DNA from: a virus
Taxonomy: Duplodnaviria; Caudoviricetes
DNA length: 64,000 nucleotides
Direction: 5' to 3' (one strand)
IMG/VR virus record: IMGVR_UViG_3300033463_000042
Coordinates: 50,309-114,308 of that record
Part shown: piece by piece, positions 19,887 to 47,741 of the stretch
How the letters are laid out: every line of letters begins with the position of its first letter
Position numbering within the stretch: position 1 is the stretch's first letter
Position numbers and translations under genes: made by a program
The notes under the pieces: model-generated
The model's database searches: none
What the model was told of the DNA's origin: nothing
Seen by the model: the letters and a program-made list of their open reading frames with translations, nothing else

Positions 19887-20693
19887 TTAGAACACGCGTG
19901 TTGAGTAGTCCTCACATGAGTGCACATCATGCAAGATATATCTACTCTTCAGTATACTGCAGTCGTAAACGCGTCCCGAAGGATACATTGCATTTACTTC
20001 TTTAACAGTCAGATTTTCAGGTATAGGTCTAGCTTTCTTCAAGCATATATGATAACCTAACCTGTCTACAAAACAATGCTTGCAAGTAAAGCACTGCTTC
20101 TTTACAATTCCTCTGATGAGTGGTACGGACCCGAGCTCATCAGAGGAAATCTCGGATTCAATTTTATCTTTGTTTAATGTTTCCTCGGCTTTACGAACAC
20201 GACGGAATTCATCGGCCGTCTTCTCTATAACCTCGGTAAACAAGGATTGCACTCCGCGGTATCCACCGAAACACCTTACAAAGTGCTTTATAGATTCCTT
20301 GTCTAACTCCGTAATCGGAATTAAAGGAACCCTGTGATACTTCAATGTTGCCATTAAAGCATCTTGTGTATATCGTATGATTTGTTCTGGATTGTAACCA
20401 ACAACCCAGAAGTTATTTTTGATCTCATCAAGGTCCATGCTTGTCAGCTTTTTCACTGATTTAACTAGAGCCTTAACGACTCTTTTACCTGGAAGGCCCA
20501 GGGAGCTTATGAATGTGACAATGTGGTCGAGATCATCTTCTCCCATTGTGAAAGTAATGGGAGTTCTTATTTGGAACCCAGTGTTATTCACCAGGTTAAT
20601 CGTCATAAAGTTTCTCGGGATGTTATCTATTCTAACCCCGAGTTTCTCAATGAATCTTATATTCTGTTCTTTTGTTCTGCTTCTTTCTGACAT
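19887..20693 (-). CDS. Hypothetical early protein with C-terminal Cys-rich putative Zn-binding domain
   Basis: CFTCKHC...HIC...DC...SC; RBS AAGGAG; early promoter motif upstream. Confidence 0.65.
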   Translation of the reverse strand: MSERSRTKEQNIRFIEKLGVRIDNIPRNFMTINLVNNTGFQIRTPITFTMGEDDLDHIVTFISSLGLPGKRVVKALVKSVKKLTSMDLDEIKNNFWVVGYNPEQIIRYTQDALMATLKYHRVPLIPITELDKESIKHFVRCFGGYRGVQSLFTEVIEKTADEFRRVRKAEETLNKDKIESEISSDELGSVPLIRGIVKKQCFTCKHCFVDRLGYHICLKKARPIPENLTVKEVNAMYPSGRVYDCSILKSRYILHDVHSCEDYSTRVF

Positions 20694-20756: not shown

Positions 20757-20771
20757 TAATAATATATATTT
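20757..20771 (-). promoter_or_regulatory. Putative early promoter AAATATATATTATTA
   Basis: Motif recurs upstream of several accessory units. Confidence 0.7.
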
Positions 20772-28469: not shown

Positions 28470-28511
28470 TTTCAAAAGACAAAAAAGTAAGTTCGTCTAT
28501 GAACATTAATC

Positions 28512-28633
28512 GTGTATACCTACTGGCATGGGCGTACACCTCCTAAAGTAGTAGACTCTGTGTAGGGTGATAATACACAGGGTCGGTGTTTATTTATATT
28601 TGTTTAGCGGGGCTTCGTGCCCCGCCCAATTTT
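28512..28633 (+). ncRNA. Candidate small structured RNA (two hairpins plus terminator)
   Basis: gtgtatacc/gggcgtacac, gactctgtgta/tacacagggtc (11 bp), gcggggc-ttcgt-gccccgc followed by T run; anti-SD-like CACCTCCT between hairpins. Confidence 0.4.
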
Positions 28634-28675
28634 TCTATGCTGCCCCTGATTTTGGCATAGGAGATTTGTTTATTA

Positions 28676-28699
28676 TAAATATATATTATTATTGTGAAA
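28676..28699 (+). promoter_or_regulatory. Putative early promoter; 24-bp exact repeat with 29471-29494
   Basis: taaatatatattattattgtgaaa. Confidence 0.75.
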
Positions 28700-28713
28700 G
28701 GAGGAGAAATCCT

Positions 28714-29061
28714 ATGAATGGTTATGTATACTCAGTCCTATCAAAAGTCAAATCCGCTGCTATTGCAGGAGCAGCAGAAGTATTTCTTCATTATATAAAT
28801 GCAATAATGATACCTAGAATGAAGAAAAATGCAATTGAAGAATATATTGTAGAAAAGGAGATGGCTGAAACTGTAGAAAAGATTTATGTGGCAATGCTCG
28901 ATCAGGGTAAATCGATTACCGTTGAAGAAGTATATGAGGCTGTAAAGAATGCTTACGATAACCCTATACCAAAAGACAAGGTAACCCCAGAAATGATTCA
29001 AAAGTACAAAGAAGTGTTTGGTGATCCAAACACAAATGAAGAAAATAAGGAGGGCTTATAA
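28714..29061 (+). CDS. Hypothetical early protein (start MNGYVY)
   Basis: RBS AAAGGAGG immediately after the promoter. Confidence 0.7.
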   Translation: MNGYVYSVLSKVKSAAIAGAAEVFLHYINAIMIPRMKKNAIEEYIVEKEMAETVEKIYVAMLDQGKSITVEEVYEAVKNAYDNPIPKDKVTPEMIQKYKEVFGDPNTNEENKEGL

Positions 29062-29465
29062 TGCCGATAATTAATTTAACCGCACACCCAATTAGAATAA
29101 TTGATAACTATCGATACTCGCCAGCTATAAGGAAAAACGTCATCCCCGATGGTCATAAGTTCCATACCAAGATGGTGATACCATCATATCAATTGGCAAA
29201 TGGAAAATATAAGACGGAGGTTCTTGAAGATTTCGAAGGATGTCCTGTGAGGAAAAAAGAAATCGTCGGATGTGACGGACTACCAAAAGTAGATGACCCA
29301 GAAAATACTATTTTTATCGTATCGACTGCGTATGCGAAAGCATATCAGAAGATGCATCCAAAAGCAGATATGAAAAACTTTTATATTATCGGGGAGGCGG
29401 TATATTCAGCAGATGGGTCTCACGTACTAGGATCCACATGTATTCTCCAATGGGACAAATTTTAA
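29061..29465 (+). CDS. Hypothetical phage protein with N-terminal NLTxH motif
   Basis: IINLTAHPIRI; TAATG coupling; RBS AGGAGG. Confidence 0.7.
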   Translation: MPIINLTAHPIRIIDNYRYSPAIRKNVIPDGHKFHTKMVIPSYQLANGKYKTEVLEDFEGCPVRKKEIVGCDGLPKVDDPENTIFIVSTAYAKAYQKMHPKADMKNFYIIGEAVYSADGSHVLGSTCILQWDKF

Positions 29466-29470
29466 GTTTG

Positions 29471-29494
29471 TAAATATATATTATTATTGTGAAA
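29471..29494 (+). promoter_or_regulatory. Putative early promoter driving a non-coding transcript
   Basis: Exact copy of 28676-28699 with no RBS/ORF downstream. Confidence 0.75.
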
Positions 29495-29766
29495 TAAGAA
29501 GCAAGCTAATCGAAACTTGCTCTCTTAAGCGCCGAGATTGATCTGCTATCTAGAGGACATGGCCCCGTTGGCATGTCTTAACTCTATTTAGTAGATCGAT
29601 CTCAAATATATGATATATCTGCCCATAGGCATAATCCGGGGCATTTATATATGGATGCCGCCTTGGTGGTTCCGAGTCCACCATGTGCGGAATCTAAAAA
29701 GCATGCAAAAAATTCATATCCAAGAAAAATAGCTGCGGTCTTTACTCCCCGTGGCTATTTTTTTTT
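29490..29766 (+). ncRNA. Candidate ~280-nt multi-hairpin non-coding RNA
   Basis: Promoter upstream, four hairpins including a 15-bp stem with G-U pairs, terminator atagctgcgg/ccgtggctat-T8; no ORF of note. Confidence 0.6.
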
Positions 29767-29787
29767 CATTTTAGGATTCAGATATTC

Positions 29788-29803
29788 TAAATATATATTA
29801 TTA
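29788..29803 (+). promoter_or_regulatory. Putative early promoter
   Basis: taaatatatattatta. Confidence 0.7.
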
Positions 29804-29960
29804 CTATGAGTAATATTAGTATAGCAGGGTTGGGTGGCGGCTCGCCTAAGAGTAGGGTGCAGATATGCATTTAAGCACTCGCGGCGCATTGATTTTGTTG
29901 TATAAAAAATAACCACGAGGTTTGTACACTTATAACGTGAATAAACTTTATTTTTTTTTC
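29804..29960 (+). ncRNA. Candidate ~150-nt structured RNA (or leaderless 22-aa ORF)
   Basis: Own promoter, GC-rich hairpins ttgggtg/cgcctaa and gggtgc/gcactc, ends in a T run. Confidence 0.4.
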
Positions 29961-30030
29961 TTTTTATTCTATATTATCTATTATCCCATCTTTTTAAGTA
30001 AATATATTTGTAAAATAAAAAATTCTAGAA

Positions 30031-30043
30031 AACGATTCTGTAA
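30031..30043 (+). promoter_or_regulatory. Putative late promoter AAC-N7-TAA
   Basis: AACGATTCTGTAA upstream of AAAGGA RBS. Confidence 0.55.
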
Positions 30044-30078
30044 TCTTTAATATACATTTAAAGAAAGGAAATGATATA

Positions 30079-31584
30079 ATGAAAATTCAAGAGTTATTTG
30101 ATATAGATCGTTATATATCAACTAATGATCTCAAGGAAGTTAAATCTCAGCATATATACAAAACACAGAATCAGTTCAATCCAGAAGGATTATTCTCAGA
30201 AGAAATATTTGGACAAACTGATCAGGAAAGAAAGTATCGATGCGGTTACATAAAACTTCCTGTACATGTATTCAATCCTAGTGTTGCTAAAACCATTATC
30301 AGTAGATCAGGTGGTATCATCAGAAAGATGGCATATGGTGAATCCAGATGTAACATTGAAAATGGTGTATTGGTAGCAGCAGCTGATGGACAATATTGTG
30401 GTCTTAAAGATCTATATGAAATATGGGATCAGATTGATATCAAGAAGACTATCAATACTCGTTCCAAGGATAACATCGATATCCTTACGAAATCACCAAA
30501 GAGACTTATATTCAATGACAAGGTTTTGGTATTACCACCTGGCTTTAGACAGATCGGTATGAGAAACGGTAAACATACAAAGAATGAGTTGAATTCTTTG
30601 TACTCACATCTCATAGGTCTTAAGAGTGTTACTTCACATACAACAACAAATGCTGTTCAGTTGTATGCAAAGTTCCAGGATGCTGTTGCTGATATCTATA
30701 CTTACATCCATGACTATGTTGGATCCAAGAATGGCTTCTTCCAGAAACACCTCCTTACTAAGACTACAACATACACTGCAAGAAACGTTATCTCTGCTCC
30801 ACGTTATAACACAGACAATCCACATATAGGTATCTTTAGAACTGGTTATCCATTGCATACATGTGTATCATTGTTCAAACCATTAATCATGTTCCAAATG
30901 AAACAGTTCTTCTCATATTCTAATATACAGGATATCCATCCTAACAAAGAAGAAGTTAGACCGGGTGTTCTTGATAATATGTATGATAACAAGATGATCG
31001 ATGATCTCTGTAATATCTACATGAATAACCCTGGATCACGTTTCAGAAAACTGTATCTTGATGAAGAGAATACTAAACCAATCATGATGGAGTATCTTGA
31101 CGTCAAGAAGAATGAAACTGTTACTCGTCCACTGACATTGACTGATGTAATCTATATATGTGCAAAGATAGTTATAGTTGATGGTGATCGCCATGTATAT
31201 ACTGTTCGATATCCTATCGGCGACTATCTTGGAGCTTTCTTCACAAAGGTTCATATTCTTTCTACAGTAGACACAATGGAAATTCAATTCCGTGGTGAAA
31301 CATATGATACTTATCCTATTATAAATCCTGAAGCATCCCACAAGATAGTATCAGTCTCGTTCGCAGATACCCTCACTCCATCCAATAGTAGACTTAAAGC
31401 AATCGGTGGTGACTATGATGGTGATACCGTTAAGTCAACTGGTCTTTGGAGTGACGAAGCAAACAAACAAGCTGAAGAACTTATGTACTCTAAGATCTAT
31501 AATATCAAAGCAGAGTGTGACTCTGTATATGTTATTGAGATTGAATGCTTGAATGGTTTATACGCATTGACAAAACGAGATTAA
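30079..31584 (+). CDS. Phage multisubunit RNA polymerase beta-prime subunit, N-terminal catalytic half (probably virion RNAP)
   Basis: GLFSEEIFG, GYIKLP, VLPPGFR, RYP and catalytic GGDYDGD. Confidence 0.92.
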   Translation: MKIQELFDIDRYISTNDLKEVKSQHIYKTQNQFNPEGLFSEEIFGQTDQERKYRCGYIKLPVHVFNPSVAKTIISRSGGIIRKMAYGESRCNIENGVLVAAADGQYCGLKDLYEIWDQIDIKKTINTRSKDNIDILTKSPKRLIFNDKVLVLPPGFRQIGMRNGKHTKNELNSLYSHLIGLKSVTSHTTTNAVQLYAKFQDAVADIYTYIHDYVGSKNGFFQKHLLTKTTTYTARNVISAPRYNTDNPHIGIFRTGYPLHTCVSLFKPLIMFQMKQFFSYSNIQDIHPNKEEVRPGVLDNMYDNKMIDDLCNIYMNNPGSRFRKLYLDEENTKPIMMEYLDVKKNETVTRPLTLTDVIYICAKIVIVDGDRHVYTVRYPIGDYLGAFFTKVHILSTVDTMEIQFRGETYDTYPIINPEASHKIVSVSFADTLTPSNSRLKAIGGDYDGDTVKSTGLWSDEANKQAEELMYSKIYNIKAECDSVYVIEIECLNGLYALTKRD

Positions 31585-45441: not shown

Positions 45442-45451
45442 TATACATGAA

Positions 45452-45484
45452 AATTATATGGGGGCTATATGCCCCCATATAATT
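45452..45484 (+). terminator. Intrinsic terminator
   Basis: aattatatgggggc-tatat-gcccccatataatt then T-rich. Confidence 0.85.
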
Positions 45485-45504
45485 ATTTCTTTTTTATTCT
45501 TTTA

Positions 45505-45517
45505 AACCCCCTGGTAA
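45505..45517 (+). promoter_or_regulatory. Putative late promoter AAC-N7-TAA
   Basis: AACCCCCTGGTAA upstream of terminase. Confidence 0.55.
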
Positions 45518-45545
45518 CCATAACACATTGAAAGGGGGATTTCAC

Positions 45546-47741
45546 ATGGATAATACTACCAGTACAGTTGCCCAGCCTCAGCAGCAATCAAAAGTTATCA
45601 TATTGAATGATGCTGACGGTAATCCAAAGTGGTATGACTTTGGAACTAAAAACGAATCTTTTTTGTTGACATGCAAAGAATTAAAAGAACTGGGAATAAA
45701 ATGTTGGTATTTTCCATTGGAGATAAAGTATCCTAATCTGGGTGTACAAAATATAGATCCATATGATCCTAATATTACACCAGAAGACATAGGAAAGGTT
45801 TTGGTTGAATGTAAGAATAATCCTTGGTACTTCTTCAGAGAAGTAACACGTGTGCCTGTACGTGGTGCTGGTCTGACTCAGTTATATTTACATAGAGCTG
45901 GATGCGCATCAATCTGGTCTTTTTTACATAATATAGACTTTGAATTGGTACAGCCTCGTCAGACATATAAGACTACAGTACTTACTGCGATAATGTCATA
46001 TATGATGTTATTCGAATACCGAAATTGTGATATACCTTATCTTCATAAAAAAGAAAGCCGATGTACAGATAACATCGGTATCCTACGTGATTATATCACA
46101 TCATTACCTAAGTATTTAAATCCTTGGGCAAACCAGAAACATCTTCCTGGTTTACAGTCATTGAAATACGAGGGTAAACATAACGTATCTATCAAACCTC
46201 TTGCAGCACCTAAATCTGAAAGTGTTGCTACTGACGTTACCCGTGGTTTCTCGCTGTTTACTTGGTTTGCTGATGAGTGTGAGTTCATACCATATATGAA
46301 AGCAATCATCGATGGTGCGAACCCGACAATCGTTCAGGCTAGAGAAACTGCAGAAAAGAATGGTATTCATCATTGTATGATGTATGCTTCTACTCCTGGT
46401 GACTTGGAAACAAATGAGGGTAAGGAATGGGAAAAGATTCTCAATAACTTACCACGTTTCAAGGAAGACATGTATGATCTATCAACAGCGGAACTTAATA
46501 GAATGAAACGTCCTCCTGCTGGATCAATGGAACCACCGCTCACTATGATCTATATTGAATTCAACCATGTTCAATTAAGAAAAGATGGTGAATGGTTACG
46601 TCAACAATACTTCGAAGCTGTTCAGAAAAGTACTCTCGGTGAGTATCGTCGAGGTGTTCTGCTCCAAAGATTCCGTGGCGGTGAAGGATCATTCTTCAAA
46701 CAGGAAGATTTGGATTACATCCAGAGCAAGATGCGTGAACCAGATTATGATGTATGCTTGATGAAGAAGTATCATCTGTATGTTTATAAACATAATATTC
46801 AGGTTCCTGATTTGAACTCTCAAGCACCTTACTTTGATATGATCATTCCATATCTGATAGGTATCGACTGTGCTACTGGTAAGGATGGAGATAATACTGC
46901 AATATGTATTGTTCATCCTTATACATTGGAAGTTGTTGCTGAACTTGTTTCACCATACATGGGTGGATTGGATCTGATGAGAATCGTTACTATCTTGGCG
47001 AAGATGTTACCAAAGGCATTGTTCTGTCTTGAGTCTAATATGACTGGTGTTGACATTATTGACTTCGTACAAGAGTCTCAATTGGAGAACAGATTCTATC
47101 ATGATCCTCGTGCTACTGAGATGACTAAGAATGTTACTGAACCTAACAATGCTGTTGCATCAATGAAAGCTCGTGCTCGTGCCAAGAGACATTTTGGTAC
47201 TTATGTATCACCTAAGGTTAGAAAGACGATGTTCAATGTTCTTCGTGATACATTACATGACTACAGACATCTCATCTATACTAAGTTCCTCGTTAAGGAT
47301 ATATGTAACTTGGTTGAACAAAAGAACGGTAACATGGCTGCTGCAGCTGGTGAACATGATGATATGGTAATGGCATATCTACATACGTTGTATGTACTGA
47401 AGTACGGTTATGAACTTGGTAGATTTGGTATTGATAAGAGCCGTTGTACATATGAGAAAGCAACAGAGATCATGCAACAGTACAATCAAGCATTGTTAGA
47501 AGATCTCGTTGATAATGCTCCTTCTGCAGAAATGATTGCTGCTGGATCTCATGAAGCACAAATGTACTATGACATGATGGGTGCATCATCTAGCTTTGTT
47601 GATGAAAATGGTTATGATGAATATGGTCATAAACATGATGAATATAAAGCATATGGAGATCTGCAAAACCGTCAAGAAGTTTTACAATCAACACCTCAGT
47701 CATTAGCATTCTTCCGTGAGATAAATAAATTCTCAATATAA
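45546..47741 (+). CDS. terL: Terminase large subunit (start MDNTTS)
   Basis: PRQTYKTT Walker A variant, WFADE Walker B, ASTPG motif III, IGIDCATG and HDDMVMA nuclease motifs. Confidence 0.9.
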   Translation: MDNTTSTVAQPQQQSKVIILNDADGNPKWYDFGTKNESFLLTCKELKELGIKCWYFPLEIKYPNLGVQNIDPYDPNITPEDIGKVLVECKNNPWYFFREVTRVPVRGAGLTQLYLHRAGCASIWSFLHNIDFELVQPRQTYKTTVLTAIMSYMMLFEYRNCDIPYLHKKESRCTDNIGILRDYITSLPKYLNPWANQKHLPGLQSLKYEGKHNVSIKPLAAPKSESVATDVTRGFSLFTWFADECEFIPYMKAIIDGANPTIVQARETAEKNGIHHCMMYASTPGDLETNEGKEWEKILNNLPRFKEDMYDLSTAELNRMKRPPAGSMEPPLTMIYIEFNHVQLRKDGEWLRQQYFEAVQKSTLGEYRRGVLLQRFRGGEGSFFKQEDLDYIQSKMREPDYDVCLMKKYHLYVYKHNIQVPDLNSQAPYFDMIIPYLIGIDCATGKDGDNTAICIVHPYTLEVVAELVSPYMGGLDLMRIVTILAKMLPKALFCLESNMTGVDIIDFVQESQLENRFYHDPRATEMTKNVTEPNNAVASMKARARAKRHFGTYVSPKVRKTMFNVLRDTLHDYRHLIYTKFLVKDICNLVEQKNGNMAAAAGEHDDMVMAYLHTLYVLKYGYELGRFGIDKSRCTYEKATEIMQQYNQALLEDLVDNAPSAEMIAAGSHEAQMYYDMMGASSSFVDENGYDEYGHKHDEYKAYGDLQNRQEVLQSTPQSLAFFREINKFSI

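Follow-up and report, generated by a model that had tools for sequence, protein, structure and literature searches.

A transcription unit in an AR9-like jumbo phage, located immediately downstream of a gene for a Crn4-like protein, probably produces an early noncoding RNA of ~275 nt. A preliminary description of this DNA had proposed an early phage noncoding RNA without a recognizable family, and that proposal is supported by a perfect promoter, the lack of a ribosome binding site (RBS) or open reading frame (ORF), a strand-biased fold, a terminator, and the absence of matches to Rfam models or from ARAGORN. Taken as a whole, our best reading, which we hold with somewhat more conviction than doubt, is that this is a real early noncoding RNA unit that doubles as the 3′ untranslated region (UTR) of the upstream operon, and that is built on a conserved module composed of its first hairpin (P1) and a long rod (P2). 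On present evidence, and judging from sequence, the unit is a predicted orphan RNA.

The DNA analyzed is a 64-kb stretch (hereafter the window) that forms part of a 114-kb IMG/VR virus contig, a record that is ~42% complete. The phage is AR9-like and carries split multisubunit RNA polymerase (RNAP) genes. One of these, the non-virion RNAP gene listed in Table 1, encodes a protein that is ~30% identical to the beta′-type subunits of PBS1/AR9-like Bacillus phages, Listeria LPJP1, and S6-like Staphylococcus phages. The comparison set consisted of 11 IMG/VR contigs with 59-92% identity in this RNAP protein. The region upstream of the RNAP gene is shared with the related contigs L003 and L004, and the conserved block 5′ of the gene contains AACG-N6-TA at 30031-30042, which differs by one base from the AR9 late consensus AACA-N6-TA. 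This motif may be the RNAP gene's own, non-early promoter. The preliminary description had overlooked that this downstream gene appears to have a conserved promoter region of its own.

Table 1. Predicted features of the locus and related leaders (positions refer to the window unless another record is named)
Feature	Position	Strand	Remarks
Early promoter, upstream operon	28677-28696	+	AR9 consensus; predicted start G28696; RBS 9 nt past motif
ORF115, first gene of the operon, no assigned function	28714-29061	+	RBS and ATG; no family at useful E-value
ORF134, Crn4-like ring-nuclease fold	29061-29465	+	Last gene of upstream operon
AR9-type virion-RNAP early promoter of the ORF-less unit	29472-29491	+	Consensus match at every position; predicted start G29491
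P1, 5′-proximal hairpin	29495-29527	+	11 bp, one bulge, 10-nt loop; z -2.1
P2, long rod	29534-29603	+	15 bp, 2x2 loop, 5 bp, 4-nt bulge, 6+2 bp; z -8.1
P3, weak hairpin	29613-29650	+	AU stem and 5-bp GC stem, 14-nt loop; z -1.3
P4, extended GC-rich hairpin	29652-29696	+	8-nt loop; z -4.4
Intrinsic terminator	29722-29766	+	17-bp stem, 5′-side A-tract, then T9; z -5.9; inverted repeat I9
Second ORF-less early unit (context only)	29789-29960	+	Promoter 29789-29808; predicted start G29808; weak fold, z -1.5
Non-virion RNAP beta′-like subunit gene	30079-31584	+	phrog_2986 'RNA polymerase beta subunit', E 8e-65
AAACAAT..TTTGACA leaders	window 49119(-), 50438(-); G000:3401(+); L004 215-295; G001:29816(+)

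A Perfect Early Promoter Is Followed by No Gene

The early promoters used by the virion RNAP of phage AR9 have the consensus AAATATATATTAT-N6-G, in which the G is +1 as established by dRNA-seq and primer extension, and the enzyme tolerates hardly any deviation from this sequence (PMC5312081). All eight promoter copies in the 114-kb record fit AAATATATATTAT-N6-G(+1), and thus G29491 is the predicted start of the transcript whose production we infer here. As had been noticed earlier, positions 29471-29494 are an exact 24-bp copy of positions 28676-28699, which lie 795 nt upstream. The 15-mer core of this promoter occurs seven times in the window compared to an expected 0.06, and the early motif is found 8-11 times per record in three relatives compared to 0 times for a reversed control.

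Strong Shine-Dalgarno sequences and start codons are located within 6-64 nt of six of the eight promoter copies, where they open ORFs of 115-410 codons. The earlier claim that neither an RBS nor an ORF stands behind the promoter at 29472 is borne out, and there are likewise none behind the next copy, at 29789. Specifically, the only plus-strand ORFs inside the unit are 40 and 52 codons long and both are without an RBS, and one of them crosses the terminator. The 3′ border of the unit has the stable, GC-containing stem followed by a U run that defines an intrinsic terminator. This terminator had been reported to end in T8; the terminator itself stands, but the run is T9 (29758-29766). The predicted RNA spans ~29491-29766.

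The Predicted RNA Forms Four Hairpins on One Strand

Minimum free energy (MFE) folding of the predicted RNA recovers all four hairpins that had been described previously. The RNA from 29491 to 29768 has an MFE of -101.6 kcal/mol (z -7.9) compared to -88.4 kcal/mol (z -4.9) for the minus strand. P2 and P4 contain G·U pairs (two of those in P2 pair on the plus strand only), and for this reason the complement is 13 kcal/mol less stable. This agrees with the previous remark that mismatches in the stems are compatible with G-U pairing on this strand. When excess stability is adjusted for GC content, the unit ranks first among 1,386 segments of 276 nt drawn from both strands of the 64 kb. The runner-up structured segments, at 20057-20500 (-) and 45449-45724 (+), have GC-adjusted z values of -3.3 to -3.6, and the former falls within a 268-codon early ORF downstream of a promoter at 20757. 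The GC content of the unit (0.41-0.45) is above that of coding DNA and far above that of true spacer (0.16-0.30 overall and 0.16-0.23 at 29900-30080).

The four hairpins differ considerably in their individual stabilities (Table 1). P1 begins 4 nt past the predicted 5′ end. A small hairpin is found within a few nucleotides of +1 in at least four of the phage's eight early transcripts; P1 is thus a common 5′ feature. P3 on its own is not significant compared to shuffled sequence. In P4, the outer stem is set apart by a 3x4 internal loop. The terminal loop of this hairpin had been called T-loop-like, but it contains 8 nt instead of 7, and P4 is better described as a plain extended hairpin.

The RNA Matches No Known Family

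Searches with Rfam models yielded no match in the whole window at the gathering score. When the region 28500-31000 was searched at E≤10, only chance matches were returned, and there was no match to any 6S, tRNA, tmRNA, Y-RNA, T-box, riboswitch, or CRISPR-repeat model. ARAGORN predicted 0 tRNA or tmRNA genes in the window. Both kinds of search had been suggested as checks in the preliminary description.

Two identities offered previously, a 6S-like RNAP decoy and a tRNA-like mimic, are not supported because there is no model match for either and because the fold does not fit. The unit does resemble RNAs of the 6S, tmRNA, and Y-RNA type in that it is also a stable structured RNA of 200-300 nt and has a hairpin loop starting with UUC. 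However, it has neither the closing stem nor the central bubble of a 6S RNA; both the MFE and the centroid folds consist of four independent hairpins in which the biggest internal loop is 2x2. Similarly, a tRNA-like reading is inconsistent with the 8-nt loop of P4 and with the absence of a T arm on an acceptor stem, and the unit is without any acceptor, D, or anticodon arm.

The Unit Lies at the 3′ End of an Operon Ending in a Crn4-like Gene

The stop codon of ORF134 is at 29465, and the promoter of the unit begins 7 nt later. There is no plus-strand terminator between position 28625 and the T9 terminator, and therefore transcripts of the upstream operon must continue across the unit and stop at that terminator. 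By this logic, the unit would serve the upstream operon as its 3′ UTR and, in addition, would yield an RNA from a promoter of its own. The preliminary description had missed the 3′-UTR role.

The AF2 model of ORF134 has a pLDDT of 94.5, and the best seven Foldseek matches in the PDB are all Crn4 structures (including 9r7b, 9sma, and 9qs9), of which the top match is 9r7b (E 2.3e-5, TM 0.58/0.66). An N-terminal T-x-H motif (T7, H9), which resembles that of Crn4, is invariant across the ORF134 family. The conserved residues of Crn4a are T13, H15, and the C-terminal R112; T13/H15 are among the catalytic residues of the Crn4 ring nuclease, and phage orthologues have been proposed to be anti-CRISPRs (PMC12830947). 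As judged by sequence alignment, more distant ORF134 homologs have an Arg near residue 126, and this residue is missing from the allele in the window and from its two closest relatives. On the strength of the structural model, ORF134 is a candidate anti-type III CRISPR or anti-CBASS early gene. An anti-defense island is favored as the context of the unit because the adjacent ORF134 has this ring-nuclease fold.

Proteins that are 98% and 86% identical to ORF134 are encoded on Logan/ENA contigs of up to 285-288 kb. The 98% identical protein (P0002) is found on 12 contigs of up to 285 kb, the 86% identical proteins are P0015 and P0016 (287 kb), and three further proteins (P0004-P0006) share 60-66% identity. 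With ORF134 as a single-protein bait, no match was found in IMG/VR, and an alignment search of the same database returned seven loci, none of which (0/7) carries the RNA. No ORF134 relatives are present in the genome collection.

A P1-Rod Module Is Conserved in Sister Phages

The unit is absent upstream of the RNAP gene in the two closest phages, whose RNAP proteins are 92% identical. In L003 and L014, the same promoter, P1 hairpin, and rod form a ~150-nt 5′ leader of an ORF134 homolog, which is 46% identical to ORF134. The preliminary description had missed this homology between the 5′ third of the unit and the leader of the sister phages.

Base pairing in the module has been retained while its sequence has changed. 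Compared to the L003/L014 leader, 9 of the 10 loop bases of P1 are kept and three consecutive stem pairs are changed on both sides. At the base of the P2 rod, the 5′ strand retains an identical 8-mer, two changes in the 3′ strand swap U·G and U-A pairs, and there are two double compensatory changes and one broken pair. Altogether, P1 and the rod base exhibit five double compensatory changes, two wobble-preserving swaps, and one broken pair. In addition, the outer rod stem of L014 has a C-G pair in place of a U·G pair in L003, where the rod consists of 6+13+5 bp. This covariation evidence derives from two lineages and pertains to the 5′ 40% of the RNA only. The pairing survives these changes only in the plus-strand RNA, and we therefore conclude that the first 40% of the unit constitutes an RNA module that has been conserved in association with the Crn4-like gene. 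Both lineages show this association, with the module preceding the gene (5′) in the sister phages and following it (3′) in the window.

For L003, the 3′ strand of P1 and a pyrimidine run can alternatively pair with the RBS and start codon. The P1-rod module may therefore also gate translation in this phage.

Relatives of the remaining portion of the RNA were not found. No homolog of the unit was identified in INPHARED by blastn, and BLAST comparisons with 12 related IMG/VR records revealed chance words only. Single-sequence covariance models for P3-P4 (R1) and P1-P2 (R2) recovered only themselves among 13 records; this route is of limited sensitivity because R2 missed even the L003 leader. IMG/VR pattern scans combining the promoter with the P1 loop recovered L003 and L014 only, and those combining the promoter with the rod base recovered the same two contigs plus three chance matches. 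Scans of IMG/VR with a 21-mer from P4 and a 20-mer from P3 yielded no match, and a gapped P3/P4 pattern produced one chance match, in a coding region, in the genome collection. Thus, the rod apex, P3, and P4 have no homolog detectable by BLAST, single-sequence covariance models, or pattern scans.

An 18-mer from P4 occurs in 16 contigs of a metagenome scan, with flanks unrelated to the unit. In one of these contigs, the 18-mer lies within an ARAGORN-called tRNA that is not confirmed by the Rfam tRNA model. Five soil-type contigs (L026, L031, L033, L038, and L039) are identical over ~140 nt around the 18-mer, a region without an Rfam family or tRNA call. This ~140-nt element is unrelated to the phage RNA.

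The Locus Is a Cassette Hot Spot

The stretch from the topoisomerase gene to the RNAP gene contains zero to two small genes that differ across the 11 relatives, and on this basis the locus is a hypervariable cassette hot spot. Junctions composed of a terminator and an early promoter are found at the cassette borders (28607-28696 and 29722-29808), and direct repeats of the promoter lie on either side of the unit.

This setting bears on the strongest of the competing explanations, namely that the unit is an orphaned leader or recombination scar, wherein a shuffled promoter-leader block that once headed a gene, as in L003, yields a functionless RNA that runs up to the next terminator. We regard this as unlikely. 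In its favor, the 5′ module does serve as a gene leader in sister phages, gene content at the locus is hypervariable, promoter repeats flank the unit, and none of the collections searched contained a second copy of the unit. However, the promoter still is a perfect match to the consensus despite the stringency of the AR9 virion RNAP, and P1 and P2 have diverged from their L003 counterparts yet have kept their pairing, which implies long-term selection in the lineage of the window as well. Furthermore, P4 and the terminator are much more stable than shuffled sequences, and the GC content is coding-like or higher, unlike that of decaying spacer.

The ORF-less unit that follows the T9 terminator (29789-29960) includes an 18-nt G-rich core and a second block that are identical in L003, L004, and L014, wherein the whole unit is inverted. 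A scan of IMG/VR with the core recovered the L003 group plus two chance matches. A leaderless ORF of 22 codons in this neighboring unit was ruled out because the predicted start is the G of its ATG, which places the ORF off the transcript.

Other Structured Early Units and Leaders Occur in the Clade

A complete 277-kb relative carries a unit of the same build and unrelated sequence (L085 1501-1752, corresponding to G009:179383-179634). In this case, the stop codon of a 479-aa ORF is followed 15 nt on by an early promoter, a 235-nt ORF-less RNA, and a T10 terminator (z -4.8). This relative also carries a GC-rich ORF-less early unit of ~700 nt with two terminators (L076 1519-2215, corresponding to G009:85726-86422; z -6.3). 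Its promoter directly follows a tRNA cluster, and there are six Rfam tRNA matches upstream in the locus. The ~700-nt unit has no Rfam match at E≤0.1 and no BLAST homolog in 12 related records, and it is a candidate for a large structured RNA beside tRNAs.

Structured elements are also observed upstream of early genes. Several early leaders carry an AAACAAT..TTTGACA block and a short hairpin just 5′ of the RBS, with a stem whose sequence varies (Table 1). This block is possibly a conserved translational operator of early genes. In the early leader of an uncharacterized gene at L006 5897-6010, the two ends pair to form a 15-bp closing stem around two inner hairpins (z -4.2). Near-identical early leaders of ~235 nt are found upstream of different genes at G005:125053 and G005:162899 (L077 and L086); each forms a long-range stem around a 20-codon mini-ORF, and together they represent a duplicated leader cassette. 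Large structured 5′ leaders seem to be common in the AR9-like clade.

Possible Functions and Alternative Explanations

If the unit is indeed a real early noncoding RNA that doubles as a 3′ UTR, the injected virion RNAP would transcribe it from G29491 to the T9 run at ~29766. P1 would serve as a protector of the 5′ end. The P2 rod would be a processing or stability site of the RNase III type, specific for double strands, and could function at either end of the Crn4-like message. P2 (15+5+6+2 bp) is long enough for an RNase III site, for which a duplex of at least roughly two helical turns is expected. P1 and P2 would constitute the conserved part of the RNA, and P3, P4, and the terminator would be the lineage-specific part. 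The separately transcribed copy would carry P3-P4 as cargo, or else would titrate the same factor. We propose this mechanism by analogy and with low confidence.

Less probable than an orphaned leader, in our estimation, is a trans-acting anti-defense RNA that would work as a sponge or decoy, sequestering an RNA-binding defense protein or an RNA-decay protein of the host, and would be co-expressed with the Crn4-like nuclease. An anti-defense decoy was among the roles raised in the preliminary description. This explanation would account for an early unit driven by a virion-RNAP promoter, for its physical and transcriptional linkage, within a hot spot for accessory early genes, to a gene of Crn4 fold, and for hairpins that are stable and protein-sized. 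However, the RNA has no similarity to CRISPR repeats, tRNA, 6S RNA, or any Rfam family, and it contains no repeated binding motif; what favors this reading comes from context alone. We are still more doubtful of a specific version in which the RNA is a counter-defense factor that partners with the co-transcribed Crn4-like nuclease, with P1-P2 as a recognition module present on both the message and the free RNA. Such an RNA might, for example, be a decoy that, in the opening minutes of infection, ties up a host RNA-sensing immune protein (type III CRISPR/CBASS-type) or an enzyme of RNA decay.

We consider it very improbable that the unit is a conditional terminator leader that meters early read-through into the RNAP beta′ gene located 310 nt downstream. 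Non-virion RNAP genes need early expression, and the two early promoters that most closely precede the RNAP gene belong to this unit and its neighbor. Against this possibility, a second full promoter and a second terminator intervene, and the RNAP gene is preceded by a region of its own that is conserved in L003/L004 and contains the late-type AACG-N6-TA motif. Moreover, relatives lack the unit or carry the neighboring unit inverted, and neither riboswitch nor T-box models gave a match.

We find it just as improbable that the unit is a small protein gene that escaped annotation or an element acting at the level of DNA (an origin, a cruciform, or a palindrome bound by protein). In favor of such readings, the rod forms an extended imperfect palindrome, the minus strand likewise beats its shuffles (z -4.9), and ORFs of 40 and 52 codons are present. 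However, the wobble pairs and the two U·G/U-A swaps relative to L003 pair only in the plus-strand RNA, the promoter and terminator frame the unit exactly, and the ORFs lack an RBS in a strong-RBS phage, with one of them crossing the terminator.

Relation to Known Systems and Implications

Known systems offer partial parallels for a real early noncoding RNA that is also a 3′ UTR. Bacterial small RNAs (sRNAs) of the DapZ/MicL type are embedded in 3′ UTRs and have their own internal promoter. The unit resembles these RNAs in that it resides between the stop codon of ORF134 and the terminator of the operon and has an internal promoter of its own; in contrast, it is phage-encoded, ~275 nt long, and almost fully paired. 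No seed region or target of the RNA was found above chance in the 114-kb record, where complementarity to candidate antisense targets is at chance level only, and sequences complementary to the P1 loop show no enrichment.

In the early region of phage T7, RNase III hairpins are located between early genes. RNase III processing hairpins are also described for SP82 early mRNAs (Panganiban and Whiteley 1983, as cited in PMC4838370). The unit similarly places an imperfect duplex of ~25-30 bp in an early transcript beside a gene, but its rod has no sequence similarity to the SP82 and T7 sites.

In T4-type phages, genes are shuffled by promoter-early stem-loop (PeSL) cassettes (Arbiol et al. 2010, PMC2839356), and the arrangement of the locus is reminiscent of these. 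Here too, terminator and early-promoter junctions edge small variable genes in a hyperplastic region, gene content varies between relatives that are 92% identical, and one unit is inverted. However, the promoters at this locus are of the virion-RNAP type whereas those of PeSL are of the sigma-70 type, and the cargo here is an RNA whereas that of PeSL is an ORF.

Among jumbo phages, sRNAs have been found by transcript mapping in the phiKZ-like phages 201phi2-1 and phiKZ (PMC11512511). Like the unit, these are short promoter-to-terminator units without a coding sequence, some derived from 5′ UTRs and some intergenic. They differ in belonging to another clade with other promoters and in having no sequence relation to the unit, which is at this point predicted only. 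Another parallel is provided by AR9 itself, with whose early transcripts the unit shares an identical promoter consensus; the split multisubunit RNAP genes of the phage are ~30% identical to those of PBS1/AR9-like phages. In AR9, early start sites were placed upstream of annotated genes (Lavysh et al. 2017, PMC5312081), whereas here the promoter heads an ORF-less, terminator-bounded RNA.

If the unit is transcribed as predicted, it would strengthen the mounting evidence that AR9-like jumbo phages devote virion-RNAP early promoters to structured RNAs that lack ORFs. Two more such candidate units are present in the 277-kb relative. In addition, the link between the P1-rod module and a candidate anti-CRISPR gene in two phages presents a testable case for RNA-level control or stabilization of an anti-defense gene.
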